A stretch of DNA of 64,000 bases, taken from assembly GCF_036507355.1 (NCBI RefSeq), contig NZ_AP027877.1, one strand, 5' to 3'. Shown piece by piece: positions 1 through 6,284 of this stretch. Every line of letters begins with the position of its first letter. Positions within the stretch are counted from its first letter, which is position 1. The translations under genes were made by a program, and so were the position numbers. The DNA comes from Escherichia coli. GTDB lineage: Bacteria > Pseudomonadota > Gammaproteobacteria > Enterobacterales > Enterobacteriaceae. The notes beneath the pieces are model-generated. The model saw nothing but the letters and a program-made list of their open reading frames with translations. It did no database searches and was not told the origin of the DNA.

Positions 1-1199
1 ACCGTAAAATCGGTAAACAGCTCGACCTGTACCATATGCAGGAAGAAGCGCCGGGTATGGTATTCTGGCACAACGACGGCTGGACCATCTTCCGTGAACT
101 GGAAGTGTTTGTTCGTTCTAAACTGAAAGAGTACCAGTATCAGGAAGTTAAAGGTCCGTTCATGATGGACCGTGTCCTGTGGGAAAAAACCGGTCACTGG
201 GACAACTACAAAGATGCGATGTTCACCACCTCTTCTGAGAACCGTGAGTATTGCATTAAGCCAATGAACTGTCCGGGTCACGTGCAGATTTTCAACCAGG
301 GGCTGAAGTCTTATCGCGACCTGCCGCTGCGTATGGCCGAGTTTGGTAGCTGCCACCGTAACGAGCCGTCAGGTTCGCTGCATGGCCTGATGCGTGTGCG
401 TGGTTTTACCCAGGATGACGCACATATCTTCTGTACCGAAGAACAAATTCGCGATGAAGTTAACGGATGTATCCGTTTAGTCTATGATATGTACAGCACT
501 TTTGGCTTCGAGAAGATCGTCGTCAAACTCTCCACTCGTCCTGAAAAACGTATTGGCAGCGACGAAATGTGGGATCGTGCTGAGGCGGACCTGGCGGTTG
601 CGCTGGAAGAAAACAACATCCCGTTTGAATATCAACTGGGTGAAGGCGCTTTCTACGGTCCGAAAATTGAATTTACCCTGTATGACTGCCTCGATCGTGC
701 ATGGCAGTGCGGTACAGTACAGCTGGACTTCTCCTTGCCGTCTCGTCTGAGCGCCTCCTATGTGGGCGAAGACAACGAGCGTAAGGTACCGGTAATGATT
801 CACCGCGCAATTCTGGGGTCGATGGAACGTTTCATCGGTATCCTGACCGAAGAATTCGCTGGTTTCTTCCCGACCTGGCTTGCGCCAGTTCAGGTTGTTA
901 TCATGAATATTACCGATTCACAGTCTGAATACGTTAACGAATTGACGCAAAAACTATCAAATGCGGGCATTCGTGTTAAAGCAGACTTGAGAAATGAGAA
1001 GATTGGCTTTAAAATCCGCGAGCACACTTTGCGTCGCGTCCCATATATGCTGGTCTGTGGTGATAAAGAGGTGGAATCAGGCAAAGTTGCCGTTCGCACC
1101 CGCCGTGGTAAAGACCTGGGAAGCATGGACGTAAATGAAGTGATCGAGAAGCTGCAACAAGAGATTCGCAGCCGCAGTCTTAAACAATTGGAGGAATAA
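1..1199 (+). CDS. thrS: Threonyl-tRNA synthetase, C-terminal part (5' end lies outside the window)
   Basis: Open frame from base 3 with no start in window; translation ([23 protein letters not shown]...) recognised as ThrS. Confidence 0.95.
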
Positions 1200-1745
<546 letters not shown>

Positions 1746-1764
1746 GGCCTTCAAGTAGCACTGT

Positions 1765-1800
1765 CTGTGGAGCCTTCGGGCTTCACAGGCTTTGTTCGCC
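1765..1800 (+). terminator. Stable 10-bp hairpin with UUCG tetraloop plus T-rich tail between infC and rpmI (attenuator/terminator-like)
   Basis: ctgtggagcc-ttcg-ggcttcacag followed by gctttgttcgcctttgtttcgttt. Confidence 0.5.
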
Positions 1801-1817
1801 TTTGTTTCGTTTATTAA

Positions 1818-2039
<222 letters not shown>

Positions 2040-2064
2040 GCCGTTAACGTTTTTAACTTTTTAA

Positions 2065-2448
<384 letters not shown>

Positions 2449-2457
2449 GCCAGTTGA

Positions 2458-2486
2458 AAGAGGGAGCTAGTCTCCCTCTTTTCGTT
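2458..2486 (+). terminator. Rho-independent terminator after rplT
   Basis: Hairpin agagggag-ctagt-ctccctct followed by tttcgttt. Confidence 0.7.
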
Positions 2487-2570
2487 TCAACGCCATCAAA
2501 ACATTGACTTTTATCGCCGTAGCCTTTTCAATAAAGGTCTTTTGAAGAGTACCAAAAGGTAACGCAAGCA

Positions 2571-2615
2571 ATGAATGCTGCTATTTTCCGCTTCTTTTTT
2601 TACTTTAGCACCTGA
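2571..2615 (+). CDS. pheM: pheST attenuator leader peptide (14 aa, 5 Phe)
   Basis: atgaatgctgctattttccgcttctttttttactttagcacctga = [14 protein letters not shown]. Confidence 0.9.
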
Positions 2616-2663
2616 ATCCAGGAGGCTAGCGCGTGAGAAGAGAAACGGAAAACAGCGCCTGAA

Positions 2664-2688
2664 AGCCTCCCAGTGGAGGCTTTTTTTG
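2664..2688 (+). terminator. pheST attenuator terminator
   Basis: Hairpin agcctcc-cagt-ggaggct followed by a T7 run, downstream of the pheM leader. Confidence 0.8.
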
Positions 2689-2856
2689 TATGCGCGTTTT
2701 GAAAAATAAAAAGCCTGTCTCATCAGGTGTAATTGTCGCAGCCAGCCTGGACACGGCCAGCGCGGAGAAACCGGAGCGTATTTAAGTACGTGAGAATTTC
2801 GAGCACTGCCCGGGACCAAAATGGCAAGTAAAATAGCCTGATGGGATAGGCTCTAA

Positions 2857-3882
<1,026 letters not shown>

Positions 3883-3893
3883 GGCAGGAATAG

Positions 3894-6284
<2,391 letters not shown>

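Follow-up and report, generated by a model that had tools for sequence, protein, structure and literature searches.

The hairpin that lies between infC and rpmI at positions 1763-1790 of the window (the whole stretch of DNA analysed here, 64,000 nucleotides of an Escherichia coli genome) is the apical part of L20-binding site 2 in the operator that controls rpmI-rplT translation. We consider it highly probable that this apical helix performs two jobs, serving both as a structural clamp for site 2 and as the stem of a partial Rho-independent terminator. The E. coli L20 operator is a classic example of feedback by a ribosomal protein through mimicry of rRNA, and the hairpin itself is already known, being part of a published operator element that has been drawn in a published structure; current knowledge of it is unchanged by this work. 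What is added consists of exact window and MG1655 coordinates for the parts of an operator that is without an Rfam match, a count of covariation over 80 species in which the helix is kept and the UUCG loop and U tail are not, a description of polymorphism in the loop and tail, and the assignment of an 'orphan' Term-seq 3' end to an element already described. The genome annotation at this locus lists CDS features only, with the operator unlisted.

The locus and the architecture of site 2

The gene order in the window is that of E. coli thrS-infC-rpmI-rplT-pheMST, with the window starting inside thrS. Over 1200-2500 the window matches numerous E. coli chromosomes at 100% identity, and 1740-1845 show no difference from K-12 MG1655, whose coordinates are obtained as 1801841 minus the window position. 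The infC coding sequence (IF3) occupies 1203-1745 on the plus strand (MG1655 1800096..1800638, minus strand), from an AUU start at 1203 to a TAA stop at 1743-1745, and is followed on the same strand by rpmI (1842-2039, AUG at 1842-1844) and rplT (2092-2448). The list of open reading frames gives only a shorter, GTG-initiated infC frame from 1311, because the real start is AUU, the known unusual codon used in IF3 autoregulation. The infC-rpmI intergenic sequence is 96 nt long, which equals the published length, and from its sequence GGAAG at 1829-1833 (plus strand) is the probable Shine-Dalgarno element of rpmI. Antisense to infC and rpmI there is also a minus-strand frame of 203 amino acids (1359-1970), which we take to be spurious. 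Among 5426 places in E. coli genomes that match infC-rpmI-rplT, two fall in records labelled as plasmid, and one genome of the E. coli collection holds two copies.

The hairpin reads GUCUGUGGAGCC-UUCG-GGCUUCACAGGC, with the 5' arm at 1763-1774, the UUCG tetraloop at 1775-1778 (closed by C1774-G1779) and the 3' arm at 1779-1790, all on the plus strand. The initial annotation had described a UUCG-capped stem of 10 bp; this core is correct at 1765-1774/1779-1788, and it extends through U1764.G1789 and G1763-C1790 to 12 pairs, of which 7 are G-C and 2 are G.U (1764.1789 and 1770.1783). Its further statements on position, namely that the stem begins 20 nt after the infC stop (counted to 1765), lies just upstream of rpmI and is followed by a T-rich tract, are likewise borne out; the sequence directly 3' of the hairpin is UUUGUUCGCCUUUGUUU, and the 25 nt after the stem (1791-1815, TTTGTTCGCCTTTGTTTCGTTTATT) contain 16 T. 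The RNAfold energy of the hairpin is -21.6 kcal/mol, at 87% of the ensemble, with z = -5.16 and none of 200 dinucleotide shuffles folding equally well. The complementary strand folds far more weakly (-14.1 kcal/mol) because the G.U pairs turn into C.A, and the hairpin is therefore a feature of the RNA transcribed from the plus strand. A minus-strand reading was rejected, as the complement folds weakly and is without a U tail.

Allemand et al. 2007 (PMC1888825) numbered the 96-nt intergenic sequence 'iris', and by setting iris1 to window position 1746 every nucleotide named in that work falls upon the expected base: G iris1-2 on G1746-G1747, A iris8-9 on A1753-A1754, G53 C54 C55 on 1798-1800, U56-58 G59 on 1801-1804, A iris74-75 on 1819-1820, C iris78 on C1823 and G infC335 on G1537. 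In this numbering the hairpin is iris18-45, at the top of an imperfect stem-loop of roughly 59 nt that extends over 1744-1802. The minimum free energy (MFE) fold of 1740-1808 alone reproduces the published site 2 (-28.5 kcal/mol, z = -4.1). Its lower helix is formed by the 5' strand AAGGC at 1744-1748 (infC542-543 and iris1-3) and the 3' strand GCCUU at 1798-1802 (iris53-57), with the GGC/GCC pairs invariant in 78 aligned sequences and with the final two bases of the infC stop codon paired within it. Above this lies an asymmetric internal loop, CUUCAA (1749-1754), in which A1753 and A1754 are the invariant adenosines of the L20 recognition motif. The middle helix, found in the MFE fold and in the covariation, has its 5' strand at 1755-1760 and consists of G1755-C1797, a bulged U1756 and then AGCA 1757-1760 paired with UGUU 1793-1796; a 2x2 loop in the MFE fold separates it from the 12-bp apical stem. 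The sequence UUUGUUC at 1791-1797 is both the U-rich tail of the terminator and, from U1793 to C1797, the 3' strand of the middle helix. The whole hairpin is followed by UGU at 1803-1805, and all of these elements are on the plus strand.

Two L20-binding sites have been described in the operator, namely a pseudoknot (site 1) and an imperfect stem and loop (site 2), and the long-range pairing of site 1 includes GinfC335-Ciris78 (PMC1888825). We place the 5' strand of pseudoknot stem S2, ACUCCGCA, inside infC at 1532-1539, and its 3' strand, UGCGAAGU, at 1821-1828, directly after the AA of site 1 (iris74-75), such that this part of site 1 spans 1819-1828 on the plus strand; the S2 pairing beyond GinfC335-Ciris78 was read from the sequence. 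Site 2 sits at the infC/rpmI junction and precedes both rpmI and the S2 3' strand. Stem S2 contains a C1535.A1825 mismatch, and in most Enterobacterales loci from outside the Enterobacteriaceae the 5' strand is ACUACGCA, which places A.A at that position.

The published experiments define the determinants of site 2 in some detail. In its lower helix, GG iris1-2 (5' strand) faces GCC iris53-55 (3' strand), and mutation of either of these, or of AA iris8-9, abolishes repression (PMC1888825). An isolated site-2 fragment of exactly this sequence binds L20 with a Kd of 63 nM, both sites are needed in vivo, and one L20 is bound per operator despite the two sites; site 2 is transcribed complete before site 1, and it has been suggested that it may be the first to capture L20 (PMC1888825). 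L20 represses the translation of rpmI, and that of rplT by coupling (PMC1888825; 2024 review). These observations on binding and repression, and likewise the name 'terminator', come from the literature and not from the present analysis, whose own results are the fold, the covariation, the match to the published numbering and the placement of in vivo 3' ends from published data. The nucleotides that L20 is reported to need for recognition, namely A1753-A1754 and those of the lower helix, are situated beneath the hairpin and not inside it (PMC1888825), and any contribution of the hairpin's own to repression is inferred.

It is reasonable to postulate that the hairpin would act as a fast-folding and very stable clamp that nucleates and locks the site-2 fold, and would thereby let the junction below it (the lower helix, the A1753-A1754 loop and the middle helix) mimic the H40/H41 junction of 23S rRNA, which L20 recognises. 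L20 present in excess over 23S rRNA binds the operator through site 2 and the pseudoknot of site 1, the latter adjoining the rpmI Shine-Dalgarno element, and bound L20 blocks translation of rpmI and, through translational coupling with rpmI, that of rplT as well. A ribosome at the infC stop should cover the RNA to about 1755-1758, judging from usual ribosome footprints, and would open the lower helix together with the AA loop while leaving the apical stem free. Such melting fits an idea found in the literature, namely that translation of infC interferes with the operator. In its second capacity, the hairpin together with its U-rich 3' flank would form a partial Rho-independent terminator, or 3'-end-forming signal, for the transcripts that carry infC, with part of them stopping at 1796-1805 and the remainder reading through into rpmI-rplT.

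RNA 3' ends and the terminator t1

A transcriptional terminator 't1' of the thrS-infC-rpmI-rplT cluster is named in the legend to Fig. 1 of PMC1888825. A terminator consensus scan flags 1763-1790 and its tail, and over 1000-3000 the hairpin is the sole terminator-like site on the plus strand within the operator; from its position and its likeness to a terminator, the hairpin is very probably the stem of t1. The tail of the hairpin is UUUGUUCGCCUUUGUUUCGUUUAUU. Its U tract, UUUGUUCG, has 5 U in 8 nt and is short and interrupted, and it passes the simple scan. Termination at t1 must be leaky, because rpmI and rplT lie downstream. A 2024 review places the promoter for rpmI-rplT inside infC.

In vivo 3' ends were taken from the curated minus-strand Term-seq table of Adams et al. 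2021 (supplementary file 1; PMC7815308), which gives the top peak per condition only, with average Term-seq counts. In LB at OD 0.4 the 3' end is at MG1655 1800036, or window 1805 (515,922 reads, against 2,213,960 at the rplT terminator); in LB at OD 2.0 it is at 1800044, or window 1797 (321,741 reads, against 387,194); and in M63 it is at 1800045, or window 1796 (220,610 reads, against 1,079,487), the rplT terminator being at 1799356, or window 2485, in each of these conditions (PMC7815308). The flanks printed with these ends match the window exactly, and the rplT row bears out that base 51 of the 61 printed is the 3' end. The ends at 1796 and 1797 fall 6-7 nt past C1790 and inside UUUGUU, an arrangement that is canonical for intrinsic termination. 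The end at 1805 falls 8 nt past C1797 and 3 nt past the complete site-2 hairpin, and could reflect either termination in a second register or the stalling of an exonuclease, which Term-seq cannot separate. We infer that the ends at 1796-1805 arise through termination and not through trimming. The 3' ends at this site were classed as 'orphan' and are not discussed in Adams 2021; supplementary file 3, which holds the intrinsic-terminator and Rho scores, is without the 3' end of this hairpin, and the string 'rpmI' is absent from all of the supplementary files (PMC7815308). The suggestion in the initial annotation that the hairpin is a partial terminator thus finds agreement in the t1 label, in the terminator scan and in the 3' ends located downstream.

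The two 3' ends could be two registers of one terminator, with the apical stem giving rise to 1796/7 and the apical and middle helices together giving rise to 1805. By their sequence, RNAs ending at 1796/7 are missing the GCCUU strand and are unable to form site 2, and those ending at 1805 have site 2 complete. RNAs of the latter kind could act as an L20-binding decoy upon infC transcripts, or could have 3' ends that are protected by L20. A functional link between termination at t1 and the binding of L20 at site 2 is, in our view, decidedly improbable; if it were true, the change in the dominant end between LB at OD 0.4 (1805) and LB at OD 2.0 or M63 (1796/7) would report or tune free L20.

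Two other 3' ends of the region may be mentioned. One lies inside infC within the L20 operator, at window 1613 (MG1655 1800228), and has an intrinsic-terminator score of 4.79 while falling inside a Rho termination region (Adams 2021, PMC7815308); no U tract is evident in the sequence there. The other, at 2485, is the strongest Term-seq 3' end of the region (PMC7815308) and belongs to the rplT terminator hairpin at 2457-2485 (AAGAGGGAG/CUCCCUCUU, followed by UUCGU), which was missed by the simple scan, probably because its stem is able to run on into its own U tract.

Conservation, variation and alternative explanations

A scan of species-representative genomes with L35 yielded 80 Enterobacterales loci, drawn from the Enterobacteriaceae, Erwiniaceae, Pectobacteriaceae, Yersiniaceae and Morganellaceae. 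All 80 have a hairpin between the conserved sequences CAAGUA and UUCGCC, with stem sequences that are very different; the apical stem of the Pluralibacter locus, for instance, has 11 bp. When 78 distinct sequences (the window and 77 Enterobacterales loci) are aligned with MAFFT, the columns A-A-G (1753-1755) and U-C-G-C-C (1796-1800) are invariant, and RNAalifold predicts the site-2 fold from this alignment with compensatory changes in 14 of its 19 pairs; within the apical stem there are compensatory changes at every pair across species. Upon realignment with a covariance model, 95.9% of the site-2 cells are paired, compared with 78.2% in column shuffles and 39-48% when the partners are slid by 1-3 columns, and 269 double-change cells are observed where 73 are expected, with none of 500 shuffles reaching the observed values. 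The covariance-model alignment is fitted to the structure, and these counts are somewhat inflated by it; the unfitted MAFFT/RNAalifold analysis shows the same pattern. This pattern agrees with the description by Fu et al. 2013 of the L20 site-2 RNA as having rigorously conserved adenosines, few conserved helix bases and a variable helix length, the last of which also agrees with truncation experiments. In the long-range stem S2, no covariation was found among the 80 loci; both of its strands are nearly invariant, and its sole variable position is the C1535.A1825 mismatch.

The loop and the tail behave differently from the helix. UUCG loops occur in 19 of 76 species, and UNCG loops of some form in 26 of 76; this is far above chance, but the occurrences are not independent of one another, and the loop is variable. 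A U-rich tail, taken as 5 or more U among the first 8 nt past the stem, occurs in 30 of 76 species according to an emulation of the terminator scan and in 42 of 78 sequences according to an alignment-based recount. The emulation takes uninterrupted stems and is crude, in that nothing qualified as a stem in 5 loci and a short sub-stem was chosen in several others, and the recount is offset by one base in some rows; by these two crude counts, about half of the species carry a U-rich tail. Variation also exists within E. coli itself. Over 1730-1845, 1720 of 5425 complete E. coli genomes are 95-99% identical to the window, three sampled variants being at 98.3% identity, and the one among these that was aligned has a UUUG loop together with U1791A, with the loss of the first U of the tail. 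A further 27 E. coli genomes have a wholly different middle and apical helix (1755-1797) between identical flanks, which looks like a replaced patch. The U-rich tail is thus missing in many species and weakened in an E. coli variant, and termination is therefore not the constraint that is conserved. Judged from these alignments, selection keeps the helix and the L20 junction, and not the UUCG loop or the U tail.

This distinction bears upon the alternative that deserves the most attention, namely that the hairpin has no function other than to cap L20 site 2 structurally, the 3' ends being left by 3'-5' exonucleases or processing that stall at a very stable structure, possibly with L20 bound. 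The retention of the helix, but not of the U-rich tail, by covariation throughout the 78 sequences is what such a cap would lead one to expect, the LB OD 0.4 end at 1805 is at a typical stall distance, 3 nt below the complete hairpin, and Term-seq alone does not separate termination from exonuclease stalling. However, the literature names t1 as a transcriptional terminator in the operator, the ends at 1796/1797 are at the canonical distance for intrinsic termination from the G+C-rich stem, and an exonuclease halted by the complete hairpin would not reach 1796/7, which lie within the hairpin's 3' strand. We regard this explanation as unlikely. The converse proposal, that the hairpin is nothing more than an intrinsic terminator for infC, with no role in L20 control, draws upon the terminator-like anatomy and the strong 3' ends, and is very improbable: the hairpin is continuous with the helices in which mutation (GG iris1-2 and GCC iris53-55) abolishes L20 repression, the stem-loop covaries in its entirety as a single unit, of which the invariant AA is part, and the stem is still kept in species that have no U tail.

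Two further explanations can be given next to no credence. The hairpin does lie inside the operator and between both strands of the pseudoknot, and it could be supposed to be a strand or element of the long-range pairing of site 1; that pairing, however, uses approximately 1532-1539 and 1821-1828, anchored by G1537-C1823, and the arms of the hairpin pair locally with each other. The initial annotation had offered, besides termination, a part in the long-range structure through which L20 represses rpmI-rplT, and of this the connection to L20 control stands, in that the hairpin is the apical part of site 2, while its involvement in the long-range pairing does not. Nor is there anything beyond the form of an inverted repeat to suggest a chance arrangement or a member of a repeat family such as REP; this candidate was refuted by the folding statistics (z = -5.2, 0/200 shuffles), by the presence of a single copy in the window, and by synteny and covariation in 80 species. 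Our preferred explanation accordingly remains the apical helix of site 2 acting as both clamp and partial terminator stem, and the initial annotation is confirmed as an observation, with an interpretation that was essentially right and already in the literature.

Relation to known regulatory elements

The E. coli L20 site 2 is reportedly also treated by Guillier (2002/2005), in the context of the rpmI-rplT operator. The hairpin is that same element (Allemand 2007; the 'L20-interacting RNA' of Fu et al. 2013), as it occupies the same locus in a sequence identical to MG1655 and has the same lower helix, AA internal loop and upper helix of variable length. With t1 it shares a G+C-rich hairpin and a U-rich tail between infC and rpmI, although the U tract here is interrupted and also supplies the 3' strand of the L20 site. 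Rho-independent terminators of the generic kind with UUCG or other UNCG tetraloops similarly combine a stable stem, here 12 bp in length, with a 4-nt loop and a U-rich tail; in contrast to these, only 5 of 8 nt in the tail here are U, the tail pairs with an upstream strand in the mature fold, and the hairpin must permit readthrough into rpmI-rplT.

The Firmicute L20 leader (RF00558; the B. subtilis infC leader, Choonee 2007) responds to the same effector, L20, shares the mimicry of the 23S H40/H41 junction with two conserved adenosines, and likewise has a terminator hairpin in its regulatory region. Unlike the E. coli element, which lies between infC and rpmI and exerts translational control, the Firmicute leader is upstream of infC and is one in which L20 promotes termination. 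An Rfam cmscan of 1-4000 (E <= 1) returned no match in 1200-1850, L20_leader RF00558 included, and given this together with the difference in position and mechanism, the E. coli element falls outside the Firmicute L20 leader family. The only match above its gathering score in that scan was Phe_leader RF01859 at 2565-2689 (75 bits, against a threshold of 55), which corresponds to the pheM leader/attenuator and has its terminator at 2661-2684.
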